Source of the DNA: a virus
Direction: 5' to 3' (one strand)
IMG/VR virus record: IMGVR_UViG_3300046000_003154
Location: 1 to 64,000 of that record
Length of the DNA stretch: 64,000 nt
Below the pieces are notes generated by a model that ran no database searches, was not told the DNA's origin, and saw only the letters and a program-made list of their open reading frames with translations. Of the stretch, positions 20,358-46,201 are shown piece after piece; the first letter of the stretch is position 1, and each line of letters starts with the position of its first letter. The position numbers were made by a program, and so were the translations under genes.

Positions 20358-20442
20358 GATAGTTGCCTGAGTGGTTAAAGGAGCAATTTGCTAAATTGTC
20401 GGTGAGAAATCGCCGCATTGGTTCGAATCCAATACTATCCTC
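20358..20442 (+). tRNA. tRNA-Ser (GCU), class II long variable arm, CCA encoded
   Basis: hand-folded: acceptor ggatagt/actatcc, anticodon loop ttGCTaa, T-loop ggttcgaatcc. Confidence 0.6.
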
Positions 20443-20451
20443 CAAAATATG

Positions 20452-20526
20452 TGCGTGTGACCGAGTGATCCAAGGTAGCTGTCTGCAAAACAGTAAAATC
20501 GTCAGTTTGAATCTGACCATGCACTC
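20452..20526 (+). tRNA. tRNA-Cys (GCA)
   Basis: hand-folded: acceptor gtgcgtg/catgcac, anticodon loop ctGCAaa, T arm gtcag-tttgaat-ctgac, CCA encoded. Confidence 0.5.
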
Positions 20527-20535
20527 CAAAGATAT

Positions 20536-20543
20536 ATAAATAG
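20536..20543 (+). promoter_or_regulatory. T4-type late promoter TATAAATA
   Basis: exact TATAAATA 33 nt upstream of ATG 20576. Confidence 0.45.
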
Positions 20544-20575
20544 ATTATAAACACTATTTACAAGGAAATTTTAGA

Positions 20576-22408: not shown

Positions 22409-22419
22409 GGAACAATAAA

Positions 22420-23136
22420 ATGCAACAAAACTTAACAGAAGAACAAATCCAAGAAAAGGAAGAGTTGTTCTTTACGATTCTTGAACAATTCATTGATGAC
22501 AATTTTGAAGTAGATCCAGACTATGAAATGACAGAAGATGATGCTTATATTCTATCTATTGTTAAAGAACATTTTGACGAAAACTTTAGATTCCCAACAT
22601 TACAAGAGTCTGCTTTAGAAGCAATTACTGGTTGGGATGTTAACGAAGCTTTATACGAAGAAATGGCTTTAGCTATTCTTGACGAAACTGTAGGTACATT
22701 TATCGCTGGTGCTCGACACGGTATTTCTCACTTCTTAGCAAAACGTAAAGAAGCTGGTGCTACTAAGTCATATGATAAGGCTCATGCTGCTAATAAAGTT
22801 GCTAAAACAGTTGCCTCTGATACAACTAAAGCACATAAGACTGCTGTAAAACAAAAAACTTATGGTGGTGGCGCTACTGGTGCTTTTAAATCTGCCGTTG
22901 CTGGTGGTAAAGTACAAGCTAAACAAAATAAAGCAGTAAAAGCAACAGCAGTTCTAGCGAAGACTAAAGATAAGTTTCATGCAGCTAGTAATAAAAAAGC
23001 TGAAGTTGGCGCAAAGAGAACTGGTTTAGCGAATAAGATTGATACAGGTATTGCGAACGTCAAGAATCGTGTCAAGTCTGCTATAACCACTGGCGCACAA
23101 AGAATTGGTGGATTTTTGGGTAGGGCAATGGGGTAA
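22420..23136 (+). CDS. acidic-N / Ala-Lys-rich-C protein
   Basis: 238-aa ORF; C-terminal AK-rich low-complexity region. Confidence 0.4.
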   Translation: MQQNLTEEQIQEKEELFFTILEQFIDDNFEVDPDYEMTEDDAYILSIVKEHFDENFRFPTLQESALEAITGWDVNEALYEEMALAILDETVGTFIAGARHGISHFLAKRKEAGATKSYDKAHAANKVAKTVASDTTKAHKTAVKQKTYGGGATGAFKSAVAGGKVQAKQNKAVKATAVLAKTKDKFHAASNKKAEVGAKRTGLANKIDTGIANVKNRVKSAITTGAQRIGGFLGRAMG

Positions 23137-23167
23137 TATAAAAGTATTTTAAAATACTAAAATAAAA

Positions 23168-23197
23168 CCCCAAGACCTAAAAATCTTGGGGTTTTGT
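23168..23197 (+). terminator. rho-independent terminator
   Basis: ccccaaga-cctaaaaa-tcttgggg + TTTTGTCATTTT. Confidence 0.55.
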
Positions 23198-23208
23198 CAT
23201 TTTGGGTG

Positions 23209-23237
23209 TTGACAAAGGGTTTAAAAACTCATACAAT
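23209..23237 (+). promoter_or_regulatory. sigma70-like promoter for tRNA cluster (TTGACA-N17-TACAAT)
   Basis: TTGACA 23209-23214, TACAAT 23232-23237. Confidence 0.5.
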
Positions 23238-23303
23238 ACACTCATGCGATAACAAATGATTCAGTTAGTTATCAAAAGTTCATTAAAAATATAATTGAGA
23301 TTT

Positions 23304-23375
23304 ATCCGGTGAGACTGCTGGTGTGGTCAGTTGCCTTTCAAGCAACCTAGAGGGGATCGTAACCCCTACCGGATA
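23304..23375 (+). tRNA. tRNA-Glu (UUC)
   Basis: hand-folded cloverleaf: acceptor atccggt/accggat, anticodon stem gttgc/gcaac, loop ctTTCaa, CCA encoded. Confidence 0.6.
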
Positions 23376-23657
23376 CCATAATTAAACATTGGTGTAAATG
23401 TGCATACTTGGTATAGGTCTAGAACTATATGTAAACAAGAGGAACACTCGGCTCAGAAAGGCAGATGAGAGTATGTTTAATTATGGTATAAGGTGATTCA
23501 TCCCACCAGTTATTCAAAGGCATGGAGTAATTCCCAGAAGTATGAATAACGTTGAGAGATAATATTACTCAATGAATAATCTGGAGGATGGTCGGTTCGA
23601 TTTCCGACACCAGAGATATGAAATTTCCCCTTACGAAGTTTCATATTGATAAATTTT

Positions 23658-23728
23658 GGGATCGTAATTCAATGATAGAATAGTCGGCTTTTAACCGATT
23701 TACGAGAGTTTGATTCTCTCCGGTCCTA
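23658..23728 (+). tRNA. tRNA-Lys (UUU)
   Basis: hand-folded: loop ctTTTaa, T arm gagag-tttgatt-ctctc, CCA encoded; acceptor has two G-U pairs. Confidence 0.5.
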
Positions 23729-23738
23729 CCAGAATTGT

Positions 23739-23810
23739 GGGTTAGTAGCTTAATGGTAAAGCAGTGAACTCATAATTCATTGAGTGTAGGTTCAATTCCT
23801 ACCTAACCCA
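23739..23810 (+). tRNA. tRNA-Met/Ile2-type (CAU)
   Basis: acceptor gggttag/ctaaccc, loop ctCATaa, T-loop ggttcaattcc, CCA encoded. Confidence 0.65.
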
Positions 23811-24080
23811 CCATAAATCGGGTAACGTCATGTTATCTGTTAATCCTTAGAATAAGTCTAAGGCGTGTTAATCGGATAATCACCAGATTGTCTTTCGATA
23901 TCTACGTTAAAGATATGGCTAAAGATCGTAATGCTAAATATTTTGTAAGAAAAAGCTGACCCCTAGAAATAGGACAGGCATTGACTAGGTTACTAAGGTC
24001 GAGATATCTGTCTCTGAGACTCCGAATGTGGTAGAATTCCTAGCAAGTCATATAAGTCGCCCTGAGATATGACAACTATT

Positions 24081-24155
24081 TGGTCTTAAAGTGTTCATGG
24101 ACGCACACAACACTGTCAATGTTGAAGAGTGGGGATCGTTACCCCCTAAGACCGC
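24081..24155 (+). tRNA. tRNA-Asp (GUC), imperfect T stem
   Basis: acceptor tggtctt/aagaccg, anticodon stem caaca/tgttg, loop ctGTCaa. Confidence 0.4.
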
Positions 24156-24310
24156 CAATATATACTGCGGGTAGTGTAGCAACAGTTCTGTCTCATAAGC
24201 ACGAACCATCGGAGGTGCAAGTCCTTCACCCGCATCCATTTTAGGATTCATTCAGCACATAAATACGGCATTGTATAAAAGCGAATCCTGTTGATTAATA
24301 AAGGTATATT

Positions 24311-25165
24311 ATGACAATTTATGGAATGACAACATCAAGAGTTTCCCAAAGGTTTACTAAGTTAGCTATTGATTCTTTTTTTGAGAATACTAAATTTAAA
24401 CCCAAAGATCTTTTCATATTAGTTGACAATGATAATTCAATTGATTTTAAATTGGATAATAGAGTATTACATATTAGAAATGACACCCCACAGTATTTTG
24501 CTGTTAATGCTAATAAAGTGTTAAAGTTTGCTATAGAGAATAAAGCAGATTTAGTGTTGATGAATAATGATATAGTTCTAACCCCTAATTGGTTGGACGC
24601 ATTAGAGAAGTATGACAACAAGATTACAGTCCCTAGTTGTAATGAGCATATCGAAATGAGTCTTGGTGGACTTACTTTGAAACCAGCAATGGAATTAGAT
24701 GAAGTGTTAAGTTATCGTAAAGAGTTGGATGAAATTTCGGATACTATTATAAGTTATCCAGAGAATAGAAATAAATTTGTATCTTTATTCAGAATGGGCT
24801 TGTATGTAATGAGGATTCCGTATACAATATCATCTATCGTAGGTTTAATGGATGAAGAGTATGGTCGTGGTGGTGGAGAGGACATTGATTACAGGATTAG
24901 AACTTGGAAAGCAGGTTTTGATACTTCTGTAGTTTTGGATTCTTTTATTATTCATTTTATGGGTAAATCAACATGGCGATCAGGAGAGTCTAGTTTTGAT
25001 ACTAGAAAGTGTGAAGAACAATATCAAAAACACTTCTTGGAAAAATGGGGCGAGAATATCACCAGAGTATTTTTAGAGGGTGATGTAGGAACCATGAGAA
25101 GATTTGGTGTTGAGAATTTGATGATGAATAGAGAGTATAAGAAAGTTTTAGATATTATTCCGTAG
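24311..25165 (+). CDS. putative glycosyltransferase-like protein
   Basis: 284-aa ORF; LVLMNNDIVLTPNWL (DxD-like). Confidence 0.3.
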   Translation: MTIYGMTTSRVSQRFTKLAIDSFFENTKFKPKDLFILVDNDNSIDFKLDNRVLHIRNDTPQYFAVNANKVLKFAIENKADLVLMNNDIVLTPNWLDALEKYDNKITVPSCNEHIEMSLGGLTLKPAMELDEVLSYRKELDEISDTIISYPENRNKFVSLFRMGLYVMRIPYTISSIVGLMDEEYGRGGGEDIDYRIRTWKAGFDTSVVLDSFIIHFMGKSTWRSGESSFDTRKCEEQYQKHFLEKWGENITRVFLEGDVGTMRRFGVENLMMNREYKKVLDIIP

Positions 25166-25234
25166 AATTCAAGCATGGTGCATGGACCTGACTGTTAATC
25201 AGAGATTAGCTGAGATCGTTACTCAGATACGGAG
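25159..25234 (+). tRNA. tRNA-Asn (GUU), overlaps the stop codon of the upstream CDS
   Basis: anticodon arm cctga-ctGTTaa-tcaga, T arm ctgag-atcgtta-ctcag, CCA encoded; acceptor has one mismatch. Confidence 0.4.
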
Positions 25235-25366
25235 CCAAATAGAATCAAGTGGAAAGCAAGAGCCACAAAGTAAATGCTGATCATCATGGCAATTCGGTGA
25301 TCTATGCAAAGCCATAGCATAGTGGCAGCGGGGTAAGAGTCCTAACTTAGAGTTGTCAGATATTTT

Positions 25367-25447
25367 GGGTGTATGTCCGAGAGGCCGAAGGAGTCTGACT
25401 GTAAATCAGATCGTAACAGCACGGTGGTTCGAATCCATCTGCACCCA
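25367..25447 (+). tRNA. tRNA-Tyr (GUA), long variable arm
   Basis: acceptor gggtgta/tgcaccc, loop ctGTAaa, T-loop ggttcgaatcc, CCA encoded. Confidence 0.65.
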
Positions 25448-25457
25448 CCAAGAATTA

Positions 25458-25529
25458 GGTGATATGACGTAGACGGATGCGTATTGGTTTCATAAGCCAA
25501 AGAGATTGGTTCGATACCAATTATCACCA
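25458..25529 (+). tRNA. tRNA-Met/Ile2-type (CAU), second copy
   Basis: acceptor ggtgata/tatcacc, loop ttCATaa, T-loop ggttcgatacc, CCA encoded. Confidence 0.65.
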
Positions 25530-25727
25530 CCAGTTACGCAGGATCAGTTCGAACGGAATTGATTTCATGAGTCAATTCATCCTGCGACCATTTATGGGAC
25601 TAAAAATATAATTCAGACATGAATTTACACAGCAATAAAAAAAGTCCCACCATTTTAGGATAGGTTCTGCAAAAAACTCAGCAAAACTTTTTGGTTGTCT
25701 TGCGACAAAAACTATCCTGTTGTATTC

Positions 25728-25798
25728 GCTCTTATAGTATATTGGTATTACAATTGCCTTGTAAGCATTTGAATGAGGTTCGATTCCTTGTTGGAGCA
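25728..25798 (+). tRNA. tRNA-Thr (UGU)
   Basis: acceptor gctctta/ttggagc (one mismatch), loop ctTGTaa, T-loop ggttcgattcc, CCA encoded. Confidence 0.45.
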
Positions 25799-25850
25799 CC
25801 AAAAAACTCTCCCTAACATATGGAGTATAATAGGATAAGTTATATGTTTT

Positions 25851-25931
25851 GCGAGTGTGGTGGAACGGTATACACACAAGACTTAAAATCTTGCGCCGAA
25901 AGGCTTGCGGGTTCGAATCCCGCCTCTCGCA
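25851..25931 (+). tRNA. tRNA-Leu (UAA), long variable arm
   Basis: anticodon arm caaga-ctTAAaa-tcttg, variable arm cgccgaaaggc, T arm gcggg-ttcgaat-cccgc, CCA encoded. Confidence 0.55.
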
Positions 25932-25936
25932 CCAAA

Positions 25937-26012
25937 GCATTTGTGGACAATTTGGTAAAGTCGCTTGTCTTAGAAACAAGAAATTCTGTGGGTTCGACTC
26001 CCACCAAATGCA
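25937..26012 (+). tRNA. tRNA with anticodon UAG (Leu by anticodon, but class-I length)
   Basis: acceptor gcatttg/caaatgc perfect, anticodon arm cttgt-ctTAGaa-acaag, T arm gtggg-ttcgact-cccac, only 7-nt variable region. Confidence 0.5.
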
Positions 26013-26023
26013 CCAGATAAATA

Positions 26024-26098
26024 CCGTGATTAGGCTAGTCTGATCAAGTCACTCGATTTGGGGTCGAGATATCGCAAGTTTGAATCTTGCATCACGGA
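26024..26098 (+). tRNA. tRNA-Pro (UGG)
   Basis: acceptor ccgtgat/atcacgg, anticodon arm ctcga-ttTGGgg-tcgag (G37), T arm gcaag-tttgaat-cttgc, CCA encoded. Confidence 0.6.
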
Positions 26099-26120
26099 CC
26101 ATTATTATTAAAAGGATGTT

Positions 26121-26474
26121 ATGAAAAAGGAATTCATATTCGACGCAAAGGTTATCAATGTAGTCGATGGAGATACTATTGATGTTGTAATTGATCTAGG
26201 ATTCTCTATGACAACCCAACAAAGACTTAGATTGTATGGGATTGATACTATGGAGACTAATTCTAAAGATCCATTATTAAAAGAAAATGGTTTATCTGCT
26301 AAGAAGTTTGTTAGTGATTCTGTGTTAAATCAAGATGTAACTATTCACACATTCAAACCAGATAAGTACGGAAGATATCTAGCAAACGTTTATTTTAAAG
26401 ATATGTTTGTTAATGAAGAATTGAAACGTAGAGGATTAGCTAAAGAATATTTTGGAGGATCAAAAAATGTCTGA
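26121..26474 (+). CDS. staphylococcal nuclease (SNase)-like thermonuclease
   Basis: VVDGDTIDV ... RLYGIDTMET matches the SNase DGDT / R-GIDAPE motifs. Confidence 0.6.
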   Translation: MKKEFIFDAKVINVVDGDTIDVVIDLGFSMTTQQRLRLYGIDTMETNSKDPLLKENGLSAKKFVSDSVLNQDVTIHTFKPDKYGRYLANVYFKDMFVNEELKRRGLAKEYFGGSKNV

Positions 26475-26643
26475 CGGTGGAAAAGGTAGTAAAGCAAGAC
26501 CATATAGCGTAACACATGATGAATATAGTAATCGTTGGGATATGATTTTTGGTCGAGATTTAAACAAAGAAGAAGTTAAAGAAGAAAATAAAAAACAAGA
26601 AGAAACTGTAGAAGTAATCGGTAGACTTCTTGTAGATCAATAA
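26467..26643 (+). CDS. small basic/acidic protein
   Basis: ORF trimmed to ATG 26467 adjacent to the upstream stop. Confidence 0.3.
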   Translation: MSDGGKGSKARPYSVTHDEYSNRWDMIFGRDLNKEEVKEENKKQEETVEVIGRLLVDQ

Positions 26644-26644
26644 T

Positions 26645-26717
26645 GGGCTGATAGTGATATTGGGATACACGAGGCACTTGCAATGCTTAGATGGGAGTTC
26701 GATCCTCCCTCGGTCCA
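26645..26717 (+). tRNA. tRNA-Ala (UGC)
   Basis: acceptor gggctga/tcggtcc (G3-U70 wobble present), anticodon arm aggca-ctTGCaa-tgctt, T arm gggag-ttcgatc-ctccc, CCA encoded. Confidence 0.55.
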
Positions 26718-26934
26718 CCATTAAGGAAACATATGAACGAACCAGAAGTCCCTCAAAAAACTTATGAGATAAAACTTAGAATTTTGGGAAATGAAGTCTT
26801 TGCAATTTCATTATCGTCTTCAAATGATGATAAATGGACAGCAATAGGACTTTTCACAGTGTTTTCTATACTTACCGTTATCGGAGCGTATGGAGATAAG
26901 ATTGTGAGTTTGTTTAAAATGTTAGTAGGTTAAT

Positions 26935-27008
26935 ACGTTGGTAGCATAACTGAATAATGCCCTAGACTACGAATCTAGAAGATTGGAGTTTGAATCCCCA
27001 CTAACGTA
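26935..27008 (+). tRNA. tRNA-Arg (ACG)
   Basis: D stem gcat/atgc, anticodon arm ctaga-ctACGaa-tctag, CCA encoded. Confidence 0.6.
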
Positions 27009-27016
27009 CCAAGAAT

Positions 27017-27088
27017 GGCTAGGGAGCATATTGAACATGCAATCGACTGATAATCGATAGATAATAGGTTTAATTCCTATACTAGCTA
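27017..27088 (+). tRNA. tRNA-Ile (GAU)
   Basis: D stem gcat/atgc, anticodon arm atcga-ctGATaa-tcgat, T arm atagg-tttaatt-cctat, CCA encoded. Confidence 0.6.
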
Positions 27089-27097
27089 CCAAAATTT

Positions 27098-27169
27098 GTA
27101 TCGTTAGTGTAAATGGCAACACACCAATCTCCAAAATTGGAATAGAGGATTCGAGTTCTTCACGGTACG
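27098..27169 (+). tRNA. tRNA-Trp (CCA)
   Basis: acceptor gtatcgt/acggtac, D stem gtgt/acac, anticodon arm ccaat-ctCCAaa-attgg. Confidence 0.6.
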
Positions 27170-27212
27170 CCCTAGAGTCAATGTCAAGACTCGAACTATT
27201 ATATATAGAAAT

Positions 27213-27869
27213 ATGGAGAAATTTATGTTCTATACAATATATAAAATAACAAATCAAATTAATGGCAAGCACTACATAGGTAGTCATAAGACCAGAGATT
27301 TGAATGACAACTATATGGGTTCTGGAAAGTACCTAAAACATGCCATAGGAAAATATGGTGAACAAAATTTTACCAAAGAAATTATGTTTGTTTTTGATAC
27401 ACCAGAAGAGATGTATCTAAAAGAAGGTGAAATTGTTAATGAAGATTTTCTAACAACAGAGAACACTTATAATTTAAAAACAGGTGGTTTTGGTGGTTTT
27501 GATTATATCAACTCAAATAATATGAGAAGTTATTCGAAAGAAAGAGCTAATAAAATTAGCTCAAAATTAAAAGAATATCATGCTGATCCTATAATAAAAG
27601 AAAAAAATAATAAATTGTTAAATGAAAATAGAATTAAGGCAACATTAGAAATAAAACGTAAATATCCAAATGGTACTTTTGTTAATAAAAAGCATACAGA
27701 TGAAACTAAAGAAAAAATTGGAAAAACTAATACAATTAAACAGAATGGTGAAAAAAATTCTCAATATGGTACAATATGGATAACTGATGGAACAAATAAT
27801 TTAAAAATAAAAAAAGATTGTGATATTCCAATTGGTTGGAAGTTAGGAAGAGTTATTAAAAAACAATAG
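27213..27869 (+). CDS. GIY-YIG homing endonuclease
   Basis: MFYTIYKITNQINGKHYIGSHKT ... YMGSGKYLKHAIGKYG (GIY-YIG); Lys-rich C-terminal DNA-binding region. Confidence 0.75.
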   Translation: MEKFMFYTIYKITNQINGKHYIGSHKTRDLNDNYMGSGKYLKHAIGKYGEQNFTKEIMFVFDTPEEMYLKEGEIVNEDFLTTENTYNLKTGGFGGFDYINSNNMRSYSKERANKISSKLKEYHADPIIKEKNNKLLNENRIKATLEIKRKYPNGTFVNKKHTDETKEKIGKTNTIKQNGEKNSQYGTIWITDGTNNLKIKKDCDIPIGWKLGRVIKKQ

Positions 27870-27877
27870 GAGTTATA

Positions 27878-28348
27878 ATGAAAAAGATAGATTTAGATGA
27901 AGTGAAAAAGTACATTGATTCTCAGACACCAGAGACTAAAATTTATCTTGGTTGTGACTCTGAAAGATTCAAAATTGATGGTCAGTGGTACGCTGATTAC
28001 ATTGTGGCTATTGTTGTTCACATTAATGGAAATTCTGGATGTAAAGTGTTTGGTGAAGTAACTCGTGAAAGAGACTACGAACAAAAACGCAATCGTCCCA
28101 GATATCGTCTTATGACAGAAGTGTATAAAGCTGCTGATATGTATTTAAAACTTTCAGAAATAGTTCCAGATCGTGACATTGAAGTTCATCTTGACTTAAA
28201 TCCAGATGAAGTGTATGGATCATCTTGTGCTGTTCAGGAAGCTATGGGATACATCAAAGGAATGTGTAATGTTGTTCCTATGATTAAACCAAATGCTCCT
28301 GCTGCTAGTTACTGTGCTGATAGATTTAAATCTCTAAAAATTGCATGA
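27878..28348 (+). CDS. hypothetical protein (possible RNase H-like fold)
   Basis: 156-aa ORF; IYLGCDSERF ... IVAIVVH ... HLDLNPDE pattern. Confidence 0.3.
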   Translation: MKKIDLDEVKKYIDSQTPETKIYLGCDSERFKIDGQWYADYIVAIVVHINGNSGCKVFGEVTRERDYEQKRNRPRYRLMTEVYKAADMYLKLSEIVPDRDIEVHLDLNPDEVYGSSCAVQEAMGYIKGMCNVVPMIKPNAPAASYCADRFKSLKIA

Positions 28349-28518
28349 TAAATGGATTTTCTAAGAGGAATACAAATTTTCAGAAAAGGTGATAGAGTGA
28401 TACATGAACAAACAGGAATTTCTTACATAGTTTCTTATGTTCATGTTAGAGGATATGAGTTGATGTTGAACATGGAAGATGGTTCAAAAATTAATTCAAA
28501 AGAAGTTTATAAAATCTC

Positions 28519-28547
28519 TTGACTTTGGAATTAAACTCTTGTATAAT
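28519..28547 (+). promoter_or_regulatory. strong sigma70-like promoter (TTGACT-N17-TGTATAAT)
   Basis: TTGACT 28519-28524, extended -10 TGTATAAT 28540-28547; precedes a 315-nt structured leader before CDS 28869. Confidence 0.55.
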
Positions 28548-28868
28548 TCATTCTGTTGAGAGATAGAGATAAAAAAGGATAGGTACTGCAACAATCATAA
28601 ACTACTATGACTAGTTTTTACAATAGAGGACAACAAACTCCTTTATATAAAAACAAACTGCGAAAAACTCGTAAAGCAGTTAAAAAAGATGAGAACAACT
28701 ATCCTGTTGTAATTTAGAGTGGTTCCAGCAAAAATAATACATTCAACTTGTAATTGAAACCGTAAAAACCCACTCTGTTGAATAAAGGCTAATTTCAGCA
28801 AAAACTAAAAAAGTTAAACTTGAAATTTAAACAAAAAATTAACCTGTTAAAAAGAAAGAAGATATATT

Positions 28869-30290
28869 ATGAATACATTTGTAAATGCAGTAGCAAACCA
28901 AGAAGCACGTACTGATAATGGTATGAAGGCACGTAAAAACACAGCTAATGCTTGTGTTGATCTTTTCTTTAAGATTGGTGCTTCTCGTGGTAAAGACGTA
29001 ACTAAGGACTTTATTGCAGCTTTCGTTGAAGATAAAGACCTAGCATTGCGTATTGCTGGATGGGTACGTGATGTTCGTGGTGGTGCTGGTGAACGTCAAA
29101 TCTTCAAGGATATCCTAAAGTATCTAGAAAAGAATGACATTGAATCAGCAAAAGCATTGGTTGCTAAAGTGCCAGAAATTGGTCGTTGGGATGATATCTT
29201 TGTGTTTGAAGACAAGGAATTGAAAAGCTTTGCCTACACTATGCTTGGGGATGCTCTACGTGCTAAGAATGGTCTAGCAGCAAAATGGACTCCACGTAAA
29301 GGACCAGTTGCAGCAGAAGTTCGTCAATTTTTTGGAATGTCACCAAAGTTTTATCGTAAATCTTTAGTTGAAATGACTAATGTTGTCGAAACTCAAATGT
29401 GTGCTAAAGAATGGGATGGGATTAATTTCTCACACGTTCCTTCTGTAGCTGCTGCACGTTACAAGAAAGCATTCAATCGTAATACTACAAAGTATGCCGA
29501 ATATGTTGCTAAACTTGTAAAAGGTGATGATGCGTCAGTGAAAGTTAATGCTGCTGCTGTGTTTCCTTATGATGTTTTGAAGGGTCGTATCACTTCTTAT
29601 GGTGTTGTTAGTGTTGATAAAACTGAGAGAGATCTTATCCAAAAACAATGGGAAGCACTACCTAATTATGTTGGGGATGCTAACATTCTTCCTTTGGTTG
29701 ATGTTTCTGGTTCAATGACTTGTTCTGCTGGAAAGAACACTACTGTTACTTGTCTAGATGTTGCTGTATCACTAGGACTATATCTAGCTGATAAGAATAC
29801 TGGTAAATTCAAGGACACTTTCTTGACTTTCTCAGGATCACCAGAATTGATTACTTTAAAAGGTAATATTATTGAAAAGATTGATCAAATGGTTAAATCT
29901 ACTTGGGCGATGAATACAGACCTTAACAAAGCGTTTGTAAAAATTCTTAACGTTGCTGTAAAAGGTAATGTTCCCCAAGAAGAAATGCCAAAGATGCTTT
30001 TGATTCTTTCTGATATGCAATTTGACGGTTGTGTTGATCATGATGACTCTGCTATTGAAATGATTCGTCGTAGTTATGAAGTAGCTGGTTATGAAATGCC
30101 AAAGGTAGTGTTCTGGAACTTAAATGCTCACGATAATGTGCCAGTTAAGTTTAATGAATCAGGAACTGCATTGGTATCTGGTTTCTCACCAGCAATCGTA
30201 AAACCATTGCTATGTGGAGACATGGAGGAATTCACTCCAGAAGCGATCATGCTAAAGACTGTGATGCAAGATCGTTATGCGTTAGTTTAA
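28869..30290 (+). CDS. vWA/MIDAS-domain protein with helical N-terminal domain (Ro60/TROVE-like or DUF2828-like)
   Basis: VDVSGSM (DxSxS MIDAS) near residue 278 followed by vWA-like beta-alpha pattern; about 270-aa helical N-terminal region. Confidence 0.45.
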   Translation: MNTFVNAVANQEARTDNGMKARKNTANACVDLFFKIGASRGKDVTKDFIAAFVEDKDLALRIAGWVRDVRGGAGERQIFKDILKYLEKNDIESAKALVAKVPEIGRWDDIFVFEDKELKSFAYTMLGDALRAKNGLAAKWTPRKGPVAAEVRQFFGMSPKFYRKSLVEMTNVVETQMCAKEWDGINFSHVPSVAAARYKKAFNRNTTKYAEYVAKLVKGDDASVKVNAAAVFPYDVLKGRITSYGVVSVDKTERDLIQKQWEALPNYVGDANILPLVDVSGSMTCSAGKNTTVTCLDVAVSLGLYLADKNTGKFKDTFLTFSGSPELITLKGNIIEKIDQMVKSTWAMNTDLNKAFVKILNVAVKGNVPQEEMPKMLLILSDMQFDGCVDHDDSAIEMIRRSYEVAGYEMPKVVFWNLNAHDNVPVKFNESGTALVSGFSPAIVKPLLCGDMEEFTPEAIMLKTVMQDRYALV

Positions 30291-30424
30291 GACAGTCTGG
30301 GGATTCTTAGGAGTCCTCATTTTGAAGTGTATTATTACGAAAATATTATAAACTAGGAAGGTTCGACCCGACTTATTATAATATTTGGTAGTATGTTGCA
30401 ACGGTAATATACTTCAAAATGATT

Positions 30425-30495
30425 GCAGGGTTAGTTTAATGGTAAAATTAGAGTCTTCCAAACTCAAGTCAAGGGTTCGATTCCCTTATCCTGCT
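30425..30495 (+). tRNA. tRNA-Gly (UCC)
   Basis: acceptor gcagggt/atcctgc, loop ctTCCaa, T arm aaggg-ttcgatt-ccctt, CCA encoded. Confidence 0.55.
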
Positions 30496-30507
30496 CCAAA
30501 ATTTTAT

Positions 30508-30581
30508 GGTGTCTATAGTGTAGTGATTCTGCATTTATGTCTGTGAAACATAAGGTATGGGTTTAATCCCCATTAGACACC
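30508..30581 (+). tRNA. tRNA-His (GUG) with encoded G-1
   Basis: extra 5' G pairing with C73; acceptor gtgtcta/tagacac; anticodon arm tatgt-ctGTGaa-acata; CCA encoded. Confidence 0.65.
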
Positions 30582-30603
30582 CCAATATATAAGAAAGAAT
30601 TTT

Positions 30604-31149
30604 ATGTCTAGCGTATGGATCACATCAGATACACATTTTGGTCATCATGGAGTTTGTAAATTTCTTACAGATGAAGGTGATAAACTACGTCCTTGGGATA
30701 ATCCTGATGATATGGATGAACATATGGTTAAAGTCTGGAATGAAACAGTTAAACCAAGTGATAAGGTATATCATCTTGGTGACGTTGTGATGAATCGTAA
30801 AGCTCTCAAAACACTTTATAGACTTAATGGTGACAAGGTTCTTATTAAAGGGAATCATGATATATTTAAACTTGAAGAATATACACCTCATTTTAGAGAT
30901 ATTCGTGCGTATCATGTGATGAACAATATAATGCTTAGTCACATTCCAGTACACCCAAATAGTAAGGGGAGATTTAATGGTAATATTCATGGTCATCTTC
31001 ATTCAAATAAAGTAATGAAAGATAATGGATATGGGAAAGACGTTATTGATCCTTGGTATCATTGCGTATGTGTTGAGCAGACTGATTTTAAACCCATACT
31101 TTTTGATGATGTTTTGAAACGCATGAAAGATAGTGCATCGGTAATTTAA
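30604..31149 (+). CDS. calcineurin-like metallophosphoesterase
   Basis: ITSDTHFGHH ... YHLGDVV ... KGNHD phosphoesterase motifs. Confidence 0.55.
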   Translation: MSSVWITSDTHFGHHGVCKFLTDEGDKLRPWDNPDDMDEHMVKVWNETVKPSDKVYHLGDVVMNRKALKTLYRLNGDKVLIKGNHDIFKLEEYTPHFRDIRAYHVMNNIMLSHIPVHPNSKGRFNGNIHGHLHSNKVMKDNGYGKDVIDPWYHCVCVEQTDFKPILFDDVLKRMKDSASVI

Positions 31150-31205
31150 TGGTAGAATGTCGCTTTTACACGGCGAATACGGGAGTTCGATTCTCCAACG
31201 ATGTA
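31135..31205 (+). tRNA. tRNA-Val (UAC), 5' end overlaps last codons of upstream CDS
   Basis: anticodon arm tcgct-ttTACac-ggcga, T arm gggag-ttcgatt-ctcc, CCA encoded; acceptor 6/7 pairs. Confidence 0.45.
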
Positions 31206-31216
31206 CCAAAAAACAC

Positions 31217-31245
31217 TTGTACGATAACATAAGTAGTGTTATAAT
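31217..31245 (+). promoter_or_regulatory. sigma70-like promoter for tRNA-Phe/Arg (TTGTAC-N17-TGtTATAAT)
   Basis: TTGTAC 31217-31222, TATAAT 31240-31245 with TG at 31237-31238. Confidence 0.45.
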
Positions 31246-31261
31246 ACATTTATGGTATTAA

Positions 31262-31334
31262 GCAACTTTAGCTGATGTGGTCATAGCGGTGGTCTGAAGA
31301 ACCATTGAAGTAGGTTCGATTCCTACAGGTTGCA
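31262..31334 (+). tRNA. tRNA-Phe (GAA)
   Basis: acceptor gcaactt/aggttgc, D stem gctg/tagc, anticodon arm gtggt-ctGAAga-accat, T arm gtagg-ttcgatt-cctac, CCA encoded. Confidence 0.65.
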
Positions 31335-31345
31335 CCAAAGAATTT

Positions 31346-31417
31346 CTGGCGTTAGTTCAATGGATAGAACAGTAGCCTTCTAAGCTATTAATAGGGGTTC
31401 GATTCCCTTACGCCGGA
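31346..31417 (+). tRNA. tRNA-Arg (UCU)
   Basis: D stem gttc/gaac, anticodon arm gtagc-ctTCTaa-gctat, T-loop ggttcgattcc, CCA encoded. Confidence 0.6.
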
Positions 31418-31440
31418 CCAAAATTGATAGGACATGCATT

Positions 31441-35441: not shown

Positions 35442-36020
35442 ATGAAAAAAAATGAAAATATTGACGCATCAGAAATGATGGTTGCTGTTGAAAGAGTTAA
35501 TTCTGGATTACTCAATAATCATATCCATTTTCTGAATGGTGATATTGATGAATATTCCGTTGGTGATGCCATTAAATGGATCATATATGAAAACACAATA
35601 GCAGAACAAGATAAAATGTTGACGTTATACATCAGTTCTTGTGGTGGCTCATTAAATGATGCGTTTGCTTTAATTGACATTATGCGCCAATCAAACTGTC
35701 CAATTAGAACAATAGGAATTGGTAGTATTATTTCTGCTGGATTTTTAATTTTTTCGTGTGGAACAAAAGGTGAACGTATTATTGCAAAGAATACTAGCAT
35801 TATGTGTCATCAATATAGTGGCGGTGCATATGGAAAACATCATGATTTACAAGCACACGTAAAAGAAATGGAATATACAAATACTAGAATGATTAACATT
35901 TTAAAAGAAGTTACTGGACTAGATGATAAAAATGTTATGTCTAAACTATTACCAGCAACCGATCAATGGTTAACACCAAAAGAAATTGTCGATTTGGGTA
36001 TTGCTGATATCATTTCATAG
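35442..36020 (+). CDS. ClpP-like (S14) serine peptidase
   Basis: GIGSIISAGF (Ser nucleophile context) and MCHQYSGG (His context) align with ClpP AASMG / IHQPLGG. Confidence 0.6.
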   Translation: MKKNENIDASEMMVAVERVNSGLLNNHIHFLNGDIDEYSVGDAIKWIIYENTIAEQDKMLTLYISSCGGSLNDAFALIDIMRQSNCPIRTIGIGSIISAGFLIFSCGTKGERIIAKNTSIMCHQYSGGAYGKHHDLQAHVKEMEYTNTRMINILKEVTGLDDKNVMSKLLPATDQWLTPKEIVDLGIADIIS

Positions 36021-37505: not shown

Positions 37506-38186
37506 ATGAAAAAATTTGATTATGTAAAACTTGATAAACTTCAATTTGATATGGAAGCAAAAACTGGTGTGTCTGGAAGAGTATACGAAACCCCCAATGG
37601 AGACATATACTCTTCTATTACCACAATTCTTTCACATCTTGGTAAAAAACATATAGCAGCATGGAAAGAACGTGTAGGGGAAGTGGAAGCTAATAGGATA
37701 TCTCGTTTAGCTTCTGCTCGTGGCACTAAAGTACATTCTGCTTGTGAACGATATTTGCTCAACGAAATGAGTCAAATGGAACTTCAGATGATGATGCCAG
37801 ATACAAAGCAATTATTTAAAATGCTCCAACCAGAACTTGATAAGAGTCTTAATAATATATACTCTTTGGAACAGGCATTATACTCTGATGAACTTAGGGT
37901 TGCTGGTAGAGTTGATTGTATTGCAGAGTGGGATGGAAAGTTATCAGTGATCGACTTTAAGACTTCTTCGAAAATTAAAGACGAAGAAAATATTCAAAAT
38001 TACTTTATGCAATGTACAGCTTATAGTATAATGTTTGAAGAGATTACAGGAATTCCGATTGATCAGATAGTCGTTGCAATTGCTGTAGAAGAAGATTTAC
38101 ACCCACAAATTTTCGTTCGTGAGAAAGCTAAATATCTAGAGAACACTAAGAAATTTATCAGAGGTTATCACTTGACTTGTGTTTGA
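37506..38186 (+). CDS. PD-(D/E)xK nuclease, RecB/Cas4-like
   Basis: DCIAEWDGKLSVIDFKTS (D...E.D...DxKT) and QCTAY (QxxxY) motifs. Confidence 0.5.
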   Translation: MKKFDYVKLDKLQFDMEAKTGVSGRVYETPNGDIYSSITTILSHLGKKHIAAWKERVGEVEANRISRLASARGTKVHSACERYLLNEMSQMELQMMMPDTKQLFKMLQPELDKSLNNIYSLEQALYSDELRVAGRVDCIAEWDGKLSVIDFKTSSKIKDEENIQNYFMQCTAYSIMFEEITGIPIDQIVVAIAVEEDLHPQIFVREKAKYLENTKKFIRGYHLTCV

Positions 38187-38200
38187 TTTTTTGGTATAAT
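38172..38200 (+). promoter_or_regulatory. strong sigma70-like promoter for tmRNA (TTGACT-N17-TGGTATAAT)
   Basis: TTGACT 38172-38177, extended -10 TGgTATAAT 38192-38200. Confidence 0.6.
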
Positions 38201-38206
38201 CTAAGA

Positions 38207-38549
38207 AATGGTAGTAAACTGGTTTTTAGAAAAGTTAGCAACACTCGGGTGCAATTCCCGACAGGTCCACCATAATCATTCTAATACGGAAGCACTAGGT
38301 CTAGCTAGGAAACGGTGTGAAAGTTGCACTCTCTGGGCAGTTATCGAACAGGGCAAGTTAAAGATAGCTAGAATGATTTTGATGGGCTTGACTTAGGATC
38401 GACTGATAAACTAGTACAATAATCGGCTACTTGTCAAAGAAGACATTAAAACTAAATCAAAATAAATGCAAATGACGAAAGTTACGCATTAGCAGCTTAA
38501 ACGCTACTTAGGGTTTTTGTGGGTTCCTCGTAACAGAATACCCACTTTT
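38207..38549 (+). ncRNA. ssrA: circularly permuted (two-piece) tmRNA gene
   Basis: acceptor piece: T arm tcggg-tgcaatt-cccga + 3' acceptor caggtcc + A73 + CCA (38245-38272). Coding piece starts gggcttgacttaggatcgac (38384), cf. E. coli ggggctgattctggattcgac, giving G3-U70. Tag ORF GCA AAT GAC GAA AGT TAC GCA TTA GCA GCT TAA = ANDESYALAA* (38468-38500). Terminal hairpin gtgggt...acccac + TTTT. Confidence 0.8.
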
Positions 38550-38573
38550 AATTAACAAAAAGGAAATTTATAA

Positions 38574-39014
38574 ATGAAGAAACTTATTATTGCAACTGCT
38601 CTTATTCTATCTGCTGGTTTTGCTGCTGCTTCTGATGTAGGAGTGTCAACATTACGTGACTATGCTGTAGAAAAGAATGGTGTACGTGTTGAAACATCTG
38701 TTGGAAAACTTGGAGCACTAACCCCAAAACTATCATTTACCCACGTAGACGGTTCTTATAATCGCTATGGTTTTGGGACTGATATTAATGTGTTTGAATA
38801 TAAAAACGTAACACTTTCTGCTAATGTCGGTGGTGTTTATCAGGACACTAGTTATGGTGCTAATGGATATGGTCTAGTTACTGGAGTGAAAGCTTCTGTT
38901 GATTTGACAAAATATGTGTCAGCTAATATTGGTGTTGATCGATTTACAGGGCAAAGTCGTGTAAGTTCTTTTGATGGAAACACTACAACTCTTGGTGTAG
39001 TTCTGAAGTTCTAA
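38574..39014 (+). CDS. outer-membrane beta-barrel protein (Ail/Lom/OmpX-like)
   Basis: signal peptide MKKLIIATALILSAGFAAA; alternating amphipathic strands; C-terminal LGVVLKF (terminal Phe); mature size about 127 aa. Confidence 0.55.
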   Translation: MKKLIIATALILSAGFAAASDVGVSTLRDYAVEKNGVRVETSVGKLGALTPKLSFTHVDGSYNRYGFGTDINVFEYKNVTLSANVGGVYQDTSYGANGYGLVTGVKASVDLTKYVSANIGVDRFTGQSRVSSFDGNTTTLGVVLKF

Positions 39015-39114
39015 AAAGAATTGACTTAATTTTAGGGGTGGGTTATAATGACTCACCCTTACTTATTGAACCGTACCAAATTGCTGATTTCCTAAATAAT
39101 ATTAGGAGAATAAA

Positions 39115-39753
39115 ATGTACTTGTATATAAAAACACACAATAAAACTGGATTAAAATACTTAGGAAAAACTTCATCTAAAGATCCTTTTAAATATAAAGG
39201 GTCTGGATTATATTGGAAAAGACATATAGAAAAACATGGCTATGATGTGTTCACAGAAATAATTTACGAAAGCGATGATGTAAACATAATAAAAGAACAA
39301 GGATTGATTTTTTCTAAACTTTATAATATTGTAGAAGATCCCAATTGGGCAAATCTAAAAGAAGAATCTGGTGATGGTGGGTGGGATTTTGTAAATAAAG
39401 ATGAAAATATAAGAAAAACTAGATCAAAGCGTATGTTAGGTTCTGGAAATCCTTTTTATGGCAAAACGCACACAAAAGAAACAAAAGAAAAATTAAGTGA
39501 GTACACAAAAAAACAAATTTTTCCAAAAAGAACATTAGAACATAATGAAAAAATAAAAAAATCTTTACTAGGAAAAAAACATTCAAAAGAAAGATGTGAG
39601 AATATAAGTCTTGCTAAAAAAGGAAAACCTCCACACAATAAAGGTATTCCAGATTTAAAAATAGAATGTCCTTATTGTAAAAAGATTGGTGGAAGATCTA
39701 ATATGAAAAGATGGCATTTTGAAAATTGTAAATTTAAAAAGGAAATATCATGA
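39115..39753 (+). CDS. GIY-YIG homing endonuclease with NUMOD-like repeats
   Basis: MYLYIKTHNKTGLKYLGKTS ... YKGSGLYWKRHIEKHG; repeats GSGNPFYGKTHTKETKEKLS / GKKHSKERCENISLAKKG. Confidence 0.7.
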   Translation: MYLYIKTHNKTGLKYLGKTSSKDPFKYKGSGLYWKRHIEKHGYDVFTEIIYESDDVNIIKEQGLIFSKLYNIVEDPNWANLKEESGDGGWDFVNKDENIRKTRSKRMLGSGNPFYGKTHTKETKEKLSEYTKKQIFPKRTLEHNEKIKKSLLGKKHSKERCENISLAKKGKPPHNKGIPDLKIECPYCKKIGGRSNMKRWHFENCKFKKEIS

Positions 39754-43784: not shown

Positions 43785-43808
43785 AAAAGCCCCATTTGGG
43801 GCTTTTTC
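43785..43808. terminator. bidirectional rho-independent terminator between convergent genes
   Basis: AAAAGCCCC-attt-GGGGCTTTTT. Confidence 0.6.
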
Positions 43809-46201
43809 TATGTAAAAATTCTTTTCCATATAGAAAAATCATCATAATTTTTTTTATTATTTGATACGTTTTGTACTACCTTATTGTTATTATTAGTTGT
43901 ATTATTGATAATAATTGGAATTGATGGTTTTTGTTGTTGACGTTGTTCTGATGATATTGTATTTGATTCTATGGCAATTTGTGTACCAAAATTTGGTGTT
44001 AACGAAACTTCTGGTACAACAATCTTTTCTTCTTTAATGTCATTATTTTTATCATCTTTACCAGCAATTAAAGAAGGTTTTCCGGGATTGTTTGGATTAT
44101 CTGATACTGGTTGTGTTCCAGCTAATTGAACATGCCAATCTTCACCTTTAACTGGTCGTGTTAAACCAAATTTTTCTAACCATCCAGAAGATTTATTTTG
44201 TGTTCCAGCAAGAGTATTTAAACCATTAGCTTCTTTTGAATTAATATCAATGGCAAGACCAGAAGCATGTAAACTTCCTTTACCATTTCCTAACGGTGCT
44301 GATGGTTCTGCTACTTTTTCTTTTGTTAATTTAATGTCTGCATGATTTTCGGCTAATTTTGTGTCCCATAATTTTTTCTGTTCTTCATTTGTTCTCACAC
44401 CAGAAGTCGCAGTTAATTTTTTACCAGTTTCCTCTTTAAACGCTGAAGCCATTTTAGACACACGATCAGTTAAAGATTTCGAAATATCATTTAAATTAAC
44501 TCCAGCATTTTGTTTTGTTATTACAGTTGATAGTGATCCACCAACATTTGTAATATCACCAGATTTACCTTCTGTTTCTTTAGATGGTGGTAATGATGCT
44601 TTTGCTGTCATTATAGTAGGGGTTGTTGAATCACCACCAGATTTTATCAAAGCAACAATATCCTTTGATCGACCAGCTACTTGTTTATACCATTTAGATC
44701 CTTCAAGATTTTCAACAAGTTCTTTATTATTACCAGCAACTAATGATTTAACAAAATTGGGCCATTTTTTATACCAAGATGCTCCCATATTAAAGGTTAA
44801 ATCTATTAAAGCACCTTGAGTAGCTTTATTAGCATTTTTATAGCCGGGAATTTTCTCTGCTGCTTTTTTGTGTTCTTCAAAATCTTTAATAAACATAGCA
44901 TCAACTTCTGCCATTGTAAATTCACGATTATATTCAGGTGGTAATGATTTTCCATCCCCTATTAAGTGTCCAACACCAACCGTCCAAAGACCTAAACTAT
45001 CTTTATATGGAGTAGTGCGAACACCTTCATGTTTTTTAATCATGTCCATAATCCATTTGTCATCATTGCTTATATTTGGAATATTAGCTTCTTTTGATGG
45101 TGTTGTAGATGGAACCTTTACTTCTGGAGGTGTTCTTGTTGGAGTTTTAGAAACATAAACTTCTCCCCTAGCATCTGCTTCCTCTTTTTTCATTGTCTCT
45201 GTTTTGTTAGATAAACCTAATCTTTTTCGAATAATTTCATCATCACCAGTATATTGTTTTTCTTCTTGTTCTTTTTTAACACGCGCAGTTTCTGTTCTTT
45301 CTTTTTCTATTTCTTTGAAATATTCTTCATTTTGTATTTCTTGTCCCTTGATAGAATCAACACCACCAACAGCTTTTGTTAAACCACTTGTGTCTACATT
45401 TTGTTGTTTTTGTTTTGGTGTTTCTATGGGAACTTCTAATATCTTTTTCTTAACACCAACACCCATAAACTTTTTTAGCTCTCCAAATTTTTCTGTAAAT
45501 AAATCACCGAATCCAAAGAAATCCGCTACTGATTTCATGACTTCTTCAATAGCTTTTAAACCCCAATCAAAAAATTCTGAAACCATTTTTTTATCTATTA
45601 AACCAAAAGTAAAAAATTCAGTTATAGACCCAATACCAGCTTTTAATGCTTCCCAGATGCTTCCTGATTGTTGCCATTCTTCCCATGCTCCAGTTACACC
45701 TTCCCACAAAGATACCACTATCATTAATGGTAATGCTATTTTGCCTAATAATGATAGAATTTTTTTGGGGTTAAATATATTAATCAAACCATCAAACATT
45801 CCACTAGATTTTTTTTCTCCAATTTTACCTTTATCAATTTCTGATATCACTTTTGTGGGAGAAGTTGATGTTATTTTTTCATTTATTTTTTTAGTTGGAG
45901 AATCTGTTTCTGTTGCTGGTTTTCCACCTTTCATTATAACTAATTGAATAATATCTTCTTTGATTTTTTGAAGATCGTCAGAAAGTTTTGGAACCAACGC
46001 AGAAATATCAGAAACTTCTTTAAGATACTTTAGTGCTCCAGAAAAATCAACTTTTTCTTTAGGTTCTTCTTTCGGAGATTCATTTTGCGGTGATTCTTCG
46101 TGAGATTCAACGGGTTTAATTTCTTCTTTTTGTTCCTGAACAATAGAATTAATCTTTTGTTTAGGGTCTTGTAATACTTTTTTTCTAATTTTTTTTGCCA
46201 T
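43808..46201 (-). CDS. large transmembrane virion-associated peptidoglycan hydrolase: T4-lysozyme-like + peptidase M15 (VanY-like) domains
   Basis: MIKKHEGVRTTPYKDSLGLWTVGVGHL (T4-lysozyme/GH24-like) and GSLHASGLAIDIN (M15 SxHxxGxAxD); central TM helices; Lys/Glu/Pro-rich N-terminus. Confidence 0.6.
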   Translation of the reverse strand: MAKKIRKKVLQDPKQKINSIVQEQKEEIKPVESHEESPQNESPKEEPKEKVDFSGALKYLKEVSDISALVPKLSDDLQKIKEDIIQLVIMKGGKPATETDSPTKKINEKITSTSPTKVISEIDKGKIGEKKSSGMFDGLINIFNPKKILSLLGKIALPLMIVVSLWEGVTGAWEEWQQSGSIWEALKAGIGSITEFFTFGLIDKKMVSEFFDWGLKAIEEVMKSVADFFGFGDLFTEKFGELKKFMGVGVKKKILEVPIETPKQKQQNVDTSGLTKAVGGVDSIKGQEIQNEEYFKEIEKERTETARVKKEQEEKQYTGDDEIIRKRLGLSNKTETMKKEEADARGEVYVSKTPTRTPPEVKVPSTTPSKEANIPNISNDDKWIMDMIKKHEGVRTTPYKDSLGLWTVGVGHLIGDGKSLPPEYNREFTMAEVDAMFIKDFEEHKKAAEKIPGYKNANKATQGALIDLTFNMGASWYKKWPNFVKSLVAGNNKELVENLEGSKWYKQVAGRSKDIVALIKSGGDSTTPTIMTAKASLPPSKETEGKSGDITNVGGSLSTVITKQNAGVNLNDISKSLTDRVSKMASAFKEETGKKLTATSGVRTNEEQKKLWDTKLAENHADIKLTKEKVAEPSAPLGNGKGSLHASGLAIDINSKEANGLNTLAGTQNKSSGWLEKFGLTRPVKGEDWHVQLAGTQPVSDNPNNPGKPSLIAGKDDKNNDIKEEKIVVPEVSLTPNFGTQIAIESNTISSEQRQQQKPSIPIIINNTTNNNNKVVQNVSNNKKNYDDFSIWKRIFT

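Follow-up and report, generated by a model that had tools for sequence, protein, structure and literature searches.

Two-piece transfer-messenger RNAs (tmRNAs) have been described for alphaproteobacteria (Rfam RF01849; Caulobacter, Keiler et al. 2000) and for betaproteobacteria (Sharkady and Williams 2004), both as cited in PMC9004378. In phages, a two-piece tmRNA was reported for the Methylophilales (OM43) myophage Melnitz (GenBank MZ577097) by Buchholz et al. in 2022 (PMC9004378). The same paper gives permuted tmRNAs for 17 of 47 Melnitz-like contigs and two-piece forms for 53 of the 133 distinct phage tmRNAs of a 2021 survey, 50 of these 53 deriving from marine or aquatic phages. The tmRNA database contains 11,946 permuted sequences; 79 of its entries come from phages (PMC11915505). 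In this study, we analyzed 64,000 nt of viral DNA, corresponding to positions 1 to 64,000 of IMG/VR record IMGVR_UViG_3300046000_003154 (referred to as the window; all coordinates are window positions), which contains a circularly permuted tmRNA gene between a nuclease gene and a small open reading frame (ORF). Both the kind of gene and its genomic spot have been known from related marine phages since 2022, and the window provides a new, rather divergent member. With a probability of roughly 90%, we consider it to be an ssrA gene that is functional in its T4-like (Kyanoviridae-type) phage, is circularly permuted, and matures into a two-piece tmRNA. Its structure, its conservation at one genomic position, compensatory helices, a promoter, and a tag conserved as a peptide were observed directly.

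An earlier note on this DNA, drawn up from the letters, had proposed a permuted two-piece phage tmRNA under a consensus promoter and with the tag ANDESYALAA. This core reading holds, the promoter being strong and the tag ssrA-like, and each of the sequence features listed in the note was found in its place. The gene lies in a non-coding stretch of approximately 390 nt, bounded by the stop codon of the nuclease gene and by the small ORF starting at 38574. A sigma-70-type promoter (38172 to 38200, plus strand, as are all parts of the gene) precedes it, with a -35 hexamer TTGACT (38172 to 38177), a 17-nt spacer, an extended -10 TG (38192 to 38193), and a -10 hexamer TATAAT (38195 to 38200). In agreement with the earlier description as TTGACT-N17-TGgTATAAT, 11 of the 12 consensus positions are matched and the TG is present. 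The promoter overlaps the last codons of the nuclease gene and predicts a transcription start at about 38207.

The acceptor piece comes first (38207 to 38272, about 66 nt, with a predicted 5' end) and was delimited by Rfam alignments, the sequence itself, and covariation of all four helices. It contains the 5' strands of P2 (outer, GGUAG, 38210 to 38214; inner, 38235 to 38241) and a T-arm UCGGG-UGCAAUU-CCCGA with a 5-bp stem and a 7-nt loop (38245 to 38261). The T-arm stands directly 5' of the acceptor 3' strand CAGGUCC (38262 to 38268), which is followed by the discriminator A73 (38269) and an encoded CCA (38270 to 38272); there is no anticodon arm. An intervening segment of 111 nt (38273 to 38383), estimated at about 110 nt in the earlier note and predicted to be excised, separates this piece from the coding, mRNA-like piece (38384 to 38549, about 166 nt, with a predicted 3' end), which was defined by model alignments and covariation. 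The latter begins with the acceptor 5' strand GGGCUUG (38384 to 38390), followed by a conserved UCGAC, and includes the 3' strands of P2 (inner, 38403 to 38409; outer, CUACU, 38427 to 38431), a hairpin placed at pseudoknot 1 by the Rfam models (38432 to 38445), the tag frame GCAAATGACGAAAGTTACGCATTAGCAGCTTAA (38468 to 38500), and a helix enclosing the stop codon (38491 to 38496 with 38503 to 38508). It closes with a terminal hairpin GUGGGU/ACCCAC (38519 to 38524 with 38540 to 38545), whose 15-nt loop is conserved, and UUUU at 38546 to 38549. As had been predicted, GGGCUUG pairs with CAGGUCC; the seven pairs include G3-U70 and one U-G wobble. The order is permuted in that the CCA end at 38272 precedes G1 at 38384, and 38 syntenic loci show the same order.

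When the whole window was searched against 4227 Rfam families, tmRNA_permuted (RF04321) matched 38210 to 38500 with 103.9 bits (threshold, 47; E = 3.6e-19), all of model positions 1 to 213 being matched. The beta_tmRNA model (RF01850) matched 38158 to 38554 with 92.8 bits (threshold, 84; E = 8.5e-27) over model positions 1 to 331, and its alignment extends over the promoter region. Both models thus scored above their gathering scores, which bears out the covariance-model part of a check that the earlier note had suggested. The combined pattern of T-arm, acceptor strand, and CCA was found a single time in the window and never in 100 shuffles. Judged by the Rfam E-values and by the absence of the pattern from the shuffles, the similarity is far above chance. 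The unconstrained minimum-energy fold of the precursor recovered the T-arm, the acceptor stem, and the long-range P2.

The window derives from a T4-like myovirus of the Kyanoviridae type, whose hosts are uncultured aquatic bacteria. It carries genes for a gp59 helicase loader, a gp33 late-transcription coactivator, a gp5-like lysozyme, a gp6-like baseplate wedge, and PhoH, besides genes for a ClpP-like protease and a cell-wall hydrolase, and its G+C content is about 32%. No DNA-level relative was found by blastn or megablast among 50,697 phage records, and an exact 26-mer covering T-arm and acceptor strand had no match in IMG/VR. The window proteins share no more than about 50% identity with proteins from cultured Kyanoviridae, i.e., cyanophages, Melnitz, and 'Phage C48C1'. 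Since DNA comparison yielded no relative, related loci were reached through the neighboring nuclease protein, which served as the anchor for fetching 80 syntenic IMG/VR loci (L001 to L080). Of the long contigs, IMGVR_UViG_3300043399_000371 (168 kb) is the closest.

In 38 of these 80 viral loci, a permuted tmRNA was found just downstream of the nuclease gene; these 38 loci, in which the RNA gene lies a short distance 3' of the nuclease gene, are referred to as the clade. RF04321 matched all 20 positive loci tested, with 101 to 152 bits, and no Rfam match to a tmRNA was obtained in the 20 closest loci without a detected copy. As 42 of the 80 syntenic loci are without the gene and none was found in the 20 closest negatives, the gene is a common but accessory feature of this phage group. 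The earlier note had called tmRNAs in phage genomes rare and permuted ones rarer still; the count obtained here and the published survey (53 of 133; PMC9004378) show instead that permuted forms are common in aquatic phages.

For the covariation analysis, 25 distinct sequences were aligned after removal of the intervening segment, and pairs were counted for four helices (22 pairs). Within the four helices of the tRNA-like domain, 97.8% of the cells were paired, compared to 48 to 58% when the partners were slid by 1 to 3 columns. Compensatory changes on both sides were observed in 17 of the 22 pairs, and none of 500 shuffles reached the observed covariation score. Compensatory pairing between the two pieces, which the earlier note had named as something to look for, is therefore present in a structural alignment of distinct homologues. 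G1-C72, G2-C71, and G3-U70 were invariant in all 25 sequences, whereas acceptor pairs 4 to 6 and four of the five T-arm pairs covaried. It should be noted that the sequence filter required acceptor and T-arm pairing and G3-U70, so that the perfect pairing of acceptor stem and T-arm is partly built in. Neither of the P2 helices was used in the selection: the outer one (38210 to 38214 with 38427 to 38431) was 94% paired and the inner one (38237 to 38241 with 38403 to 38407) 96%, and all 10 pairs showed compensatory changes. Independently of the filter, these loci are supported by Rfam and ARAGORN.

In the window, the T-arm loop differs from UUCGAAU, which is also true of many clade members and of the alphaproteobacterial consensus. 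Most clade members also have a promoter-like site at a similar distance, with the end of the -10 element 35 to 45 nt before the T-arm, and 10 of 25 distinct upstream regions match at least 10 of the 12 promoter positions. The closest relative of the window tmRNA (nhmmer, 129 bits; tag ANDELFALAA) is L084, a contig of 1794 nt from a metagenome-assembled genome (CAILDT010000304.1). This contig is binned as 'uncultured Bacteroidetes', and a 189-aa homing-endonuclease-like ORF on it (118 to 687) runs into the promoter position.

As read in the earlier note, the tag frame encodes ANDESYALAA* (codons GCA AAU GAC GAA AGU UAC GCA UUA GCA GCU UAA), with the resume codon GCA at 38468 to 38470 and the stop codon UAA at 38498 to 38500. 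Tags in the clade follow the pattern AN[D/E]...[Y/F]ALAA after a conserved UAAAU/UAAAC context. Locus L011 has the same tag, ANDESYALAA, with two synonymous differences from the window (TTA/TTG and GCT/GCC), and the retention of an identical peptide through synonymous changes indicates selection on the peptide. For the 3' domain, an anchored hairpin search replaced RNAalifold, which was uninformative because MAFFT put stems of variable length out of register. In most clade members, the last part of the tag pairs with the sequence after it to form a helix that has the stop codon in its loop, and this helix shows the compensatory variants AGCAG/CUGCU, AGCCG/CGGCU, and GAUGGCU/AGCCAUC.

The terminal hairpin GUGGGU/ACCCAC (38519 to 38545) is present in every clade member. 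Its stems covary, the loop CCUCGUAACAGAAUA between them is conserved, and in the RF01850 alignment the hairpin corresponds to a structural helix of the model. The earlier note had taken this hairpin for a terminator. A strict terminator scan found no terminator, the hairpin having a 15-nt loop and only four U residues after it; the U run is shared by the window and a few relatives but is missing in most. Because the hairpin is conserved and covarying, the strict scan was negative, and the U run is absent from most relatives, we regard it mainly as a structural part of the RNA. In the window, it may or may not end transcription as well.

Several observations speak against the assignment as a functional tmRNA. 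The other part of the suggested check was negative, as ARAGORN called no tmRNA on either the window or the excised region. We consider this a false negative, since 29 homologues in related loci were called by the same program. The RF01850 score exceeds the model threshold by only 9 bits, and the Rfam alignment of P2 contains two non-canonical pairs. The fold of the whole precursor was no more stable than that of shuffles (z = -0.9) and adds no support, a weak fold z-score being usual for AU-rich RNAs. A pseudoknot upstream of the tag was not demonstrated: the first hairpin (38432 to 38445) aligns to the model, but no convincing second stem was found in the window, and the alignment in this region was out of register for the covariation count. 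A further candidate pseudoknot between AGGG (38511 to 38514) and UCCU in the loop of the terminal hairpin (38525 to 38528) had no consistent register across the clade and is not claimed.

Two more points are of this kind. The window has a C at 38242, where at least 90% of the clade members have the G of a 'GAC' preceding the T-arm; in E. coli tmRNA, the G at this position presumably forms a sheared G-A pair in the tRNA-like domain. This C is no sequencing error, since the closest relative, L084, has the same C. No SmpB-like ORF was detected in the 64-kb window by tblastn with an E. coli SmpB query. SmpB would thus have to come from the host or from an unseen part of the phage genome, and, as 64 kb of the genome were covered, dependence on host SmpB is an assumption.

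The same two points would fit an RNA that acts as a decoy or inhibitor, titrating host SmpB or blocking host trans-translation instead of rescuing ribosomes and tagging proteins. Such a role has been proposed for the molecule of mycobacteriophage DS6A, which has only the tRNA-like domain, and phage tmRNA variants of this kind exist and inhibit tmRNA when expressed in E. coli (PMC4131195, PMC11915505). However, the gene in the window has a complete tag frame with a canonical resume context, an ALAA end, and a peptide conserved through synonymous changes, and the stop-codon helix and the 3' hairpin are conserved as well, parts for which a pure decoy would have no need. We therefore regard a decoy as quite unlikely and retain the reading as a functional tmRNA gene.

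The failure of ARAGORN was not confined to the window. It also missed 9 of the 38 clade loci (L013, L015 to L017, L019, L020, L022, L037, and L055), and RF04321 scored more than 100 bits on the missed copies tested, i.e., L013, L017, L019, L055, and the window. As ARAGORN is the tool of the published phage tmRNA surveys and misses about a quarter of this clade, phage tmRNAs are probably under-counted.

The intervening segment is bounded by a 10-bp closing stem, AAUCAUUCUA (38274 to 38283) with UAGAAUGAUU (38369 to 38378), which encloses a branched, variable interior, and a leader UGAU (38380 to 38383) stands directly before G1. In the clade, the closing stem starts one base after the CCA and closes four bases before G1. 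It was 92% paired across 23 distinct segments, compared to 40 to 57% in slid registers, with compensatory changes at most positions, and the UGAU leader was found in 20 of the 23. The region as a whole ranges from 11 to 174 nt in the clade, with interiors that are mostly unrelated. We infer that the closing stem may serve as a processing scaffold stacked on the acceptor stem, presenting the RNase P site and the CCA end. No known RNA family or riboswitch was found in the 111-nt segment or 3' of the gene at E<=10, and no riboswitch or other known RNA was detected in 40 related loci at gathering thresholds. The fold stability of the segment itself was not significant (z = -1.3).

Some intervening segments contain small ORFs starting with ATG: 47 aa (MKPTEIKDQ...) at L034:4730-4889, 65 aa at L055:4238-4412, and a hydrophobic one of about 49 aa in the segment L001:3733-3831. 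Possibly, the excised insert sometimes carries cargo, and it might then yield a second product. In the window, an ATG-started ORF of 62 codons (38208 to 38396) spans the acceptor piece and the intervening segment, which raises the question of whether the actual gene is this ORF, or some other small one, with the likeness to an RNA being incidental. The spanned region varies from 11 to 174 nt in the homologues, with lengths that are not multiples of three and sequences that are unrelated; conservation follows base-pairing and not codons, and both RNA models match end to end. A protein-coding origin of the signal is, accordingly, extremely improbable.

Drawing on established tmRNA knowledge, the following sequence of events can be proposed for the permuted tmRNA. 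At the consensus early-type promoter, host RNA polymerase would initiate near 38207 and produce a precursor of about 345 nt. The precursor would fold such that the acceptor stem stacks on the conserved 10-bp closing stem. RNase P would then cut 5' of G38384, after UGAU, the 3' end would be trimmed to the CCA at 38272, and the 111-nt insert would be discarded. The two resulting pieces, of about 66 nt (acceptor) and about 166 nt (coding), would be held together by the 7-bp acceptor stem and the P2 helices, and alanyl-tRNA synthetase would charge the RNA by means of G3-U70 and A73. Host SmpB and EF-Tu would bring it into ribosomes stalled on broken mRNAs, where translation would resume at GCA 38468 and add ANDESYALAA, sending the truncated protein to host proteases such as ClpXP. 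The phage would likely benefit from a greater capacity for ribosome rescue at a time when it breaks down the mRNA and DNA of its host. Translation support of this kind is also indicated by the 22 tRNA genes of the window.

For temperate phages, ssrA is a frequent integration site, and pieces of the gene are often found in their genomes (PMC4383910, PMC9004378). The RNA gene could hence be a passenger, for example, a decaying host ssrA fragment left by integration at the tmRNA gene and without function in the phage. Its accessory distribution, with 42 of 80 syntenic loci lacking it, would be in line with such an origin, as would the finding that its divergence does not track that of the neighboring nuclease. 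However, the gene is of full length, with both halves, promoter, and tag, and its helices are maintained by compensatory changes across sequences that are only about 50 to 65% identical. The phage is T4-like, and no integrase was found among the ten large ORFs that were scanned against Pfam. In addition, when one genome each of 185,579 bacterial and archaeal species was scanned for the conserved 3' motif of the main form of the clade, only three contigs matched. All three are metagenome-assembled and carry phage-type copies; L084 is one of them, and they are probably mis-binned phage DNA. A passenger is therefore very unlikely, and the functional phage gene remains our preferred explanation.

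Pairwise divergences of tmRNA and nuclease were uncorrelated (Spearman coefficient of 0.06; equal or higher values in 374 of 2000 Mantel permutations), so strict vertical co-inheritance of the two is unsupported. This suggests either that phages exchange the cassette at a hotspot or that the short RNA alignment is saturated. Within the syntenic clade, the best-scoring subtype was beta for 15 of 20 loci and alpha for 5 of 20; for the window, it was beta by a narrow margin. Melnitz, which infects a beta-type host, has an alpha-matching tmRNA, that is, a subtype that does not correspond to its host (PMC9004378). Since the subtype flips within the clade and is mismatched in Melnitz, neither the permuted form nor the subtype says much about the host. 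The earlier note had seen in the permuted architecture a hint at a host among alphaproteobacteria or cyanobacteria, which does not hold, given that the beta model scores best and the label flips within the clade.

Overall, the permuted tmRNA has the appearance of a gene type that is resident in phages. The hosts given for this phage group in the literature and in phage records are cyanobacteria, SAR11 (alpha), and OM43 (beta-type), three lineages with permuted tmRNA genes of their own. One may speculate that the phage genes form a resident, exchangeable tmRNA lineage and no series of fresh captures from hosts, and that phages could have carried the permuted form between bacterial lineages. The observations that prompt this idea are the single hotspot, the occurrence of both alpha and beta types at it, the near absence of the motif from bacterial chromosomes, and a divergence uncoupled from that of the neighboring gene; we nevertheless consider it unlikely. 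If it were true, the 'three independent permutation events' might be fewer than three.

The genes on either side do not belong to the RNA. The upstream gene (37506 to 38186, plus strand) was called RecB-like in the earlier note and does encode a PD-(D/E)XK exonuclease (Pfam PF12705; PHROG 298, 'exonuclease', E = 2e-68). Used here as the synteny anchor, it has homologues in the 80 viral loci and in Melnitz. The downstream gene (38574 to 39014) encodes a small protein of 146 aa with a signal peptide and a C-terminal Phe. Its earlier designation as an outer membrane protein found no support, as the protein matched no family of Pfam or PHROG, those of outer membrane proteins included. Homologues with 41 to 47% identity were seen only 3' of the tmRNA in L051, L054, and L055. 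Because there is no clear terminator between the two, this gene may be co-transcribed with the tmRNA. It is followed by a homing-endonuclease-like gene (39115 to 39753; PHROG 314, E = 4.5e-22), located between the tmRNA and the conserved block of hydrolase, gp33, and gp59. A second near-consensus promoter, TTGACT-17-TATAAT (39021 to 39049), precedes the homing-endonuclease-like gene.

A gene of the ClpP family (35442 to 36020; Pfam PF00574, E = 3e-32) is situated 2 kb upstream of the tmRNA. A functional linkage of the two was considered and rejected: ClpP was nearby in 3 of the 38 tmRNA-positive loci versus 2 of the 42 negative ones, and, as they are unlinked across loci, we do not connect the two. 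Elsewhere in the window, one of the 22 tRNAs (27017 to 27088), located inside the tRNA array at 20177 to 31420, was detected by Rfam with 46.8 bits (threshold, 29) and was not reported by ARAGORN. In the gp5-like protein (797 aa; 43808 to 46201, minus strand), a phage lysozyme domain occurs together with a VanY D-Ala-D-Ala carboxypeptidase domain.

With this gene, the known phage tmRNAs gain a divergent and well-validated member, which is part of a sizeable clade occupying the same position in the genomes of uncultured T4-like phages. It supports the view, already present in the literature, that large aquatic phages may carry their own translation-maintenance kit of tRNAs and tmRNA. Three by-products are of use, namely, the conserved stem, presumably for processing, that encloses a hypervariable insert, the false negatives of ARAGORN, and the finding that the subtype is unreliable as a host marker; hosts should not be predicted from whether a phage tmRNA is of the alpha or the beta subtype.

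Compared with known tmRNAs, the one-piece forms of large phages, i.e., the mycobacteriophage Bxz1 group and Bacillus phage G (PMC4131195), resemble the gene in the window in being phage-encoded and in presumably aiding translation during infection. They differ from it in their unpermuted order and belong to unrelated phage lineages with other hosts. With the alphaproteobacterial tmRNA, the gene in the window has in common the permuted order and the predicted maturation into two base-paired pieces, and CCUCGUAACAGAAUA, the conserved 3' loop of the clade members, is similar to ...GGCAACAGAA... in the alpha consensus. For the window, the alpha model was suppressed because it was a lower-scoring overlap within the same clan than the beta model.

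The betaproteobacterial two-piece tmRNA (RF01850) is the best model of the clan for the window and aligns over its full length. The alignment takes in the promoter-like leader, P2, the T-arm and the acceptor stem, the first hairpin of the pseudoknot, and the tag with the helix that follows it; some clade members reach 158 to 163 bits. In contrast to that model, the window has an intervening segment that is about 80 nt longer, it lacks the terminal stem-loop of the model, and the gene is located in a phage and not on a betaproteobacterial chromosome.

Melnitz is likewise a Kyanoviridae-type T4-like phage, with the order PhoH, PD-(D/E)XK nuclease, tmRNA, gp33, and gp59; its record has two small ORFs between the nuclease and the annotated SsrA tmRNA. 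Its tmRNA is also permuted and matches RF04321 (113 bits, compared to 104 for the window), with a long intervening segment (about 140 nt, compared to 111 nt), an early-type promoter, and a tag of the form AND...ALAA. The two differ in that there is no DNA similarity by blastn, the adjacent nucleases being only 50% identical, and in that the best model is alpha for Melnitz and beta for the window. Melnitz has a glutamine riboswitch (RF01739, 52.8 bits) directly 3' of the tmRNA, which the window lacks, whereas the window has the gene for the small secreted protein, the homing-endonuclease-like gene, and further genes between tmRNA and gp33. As the gene order is the same in both phages, the tmRNA gene of the window is a divergent positional counterpart of the published one.

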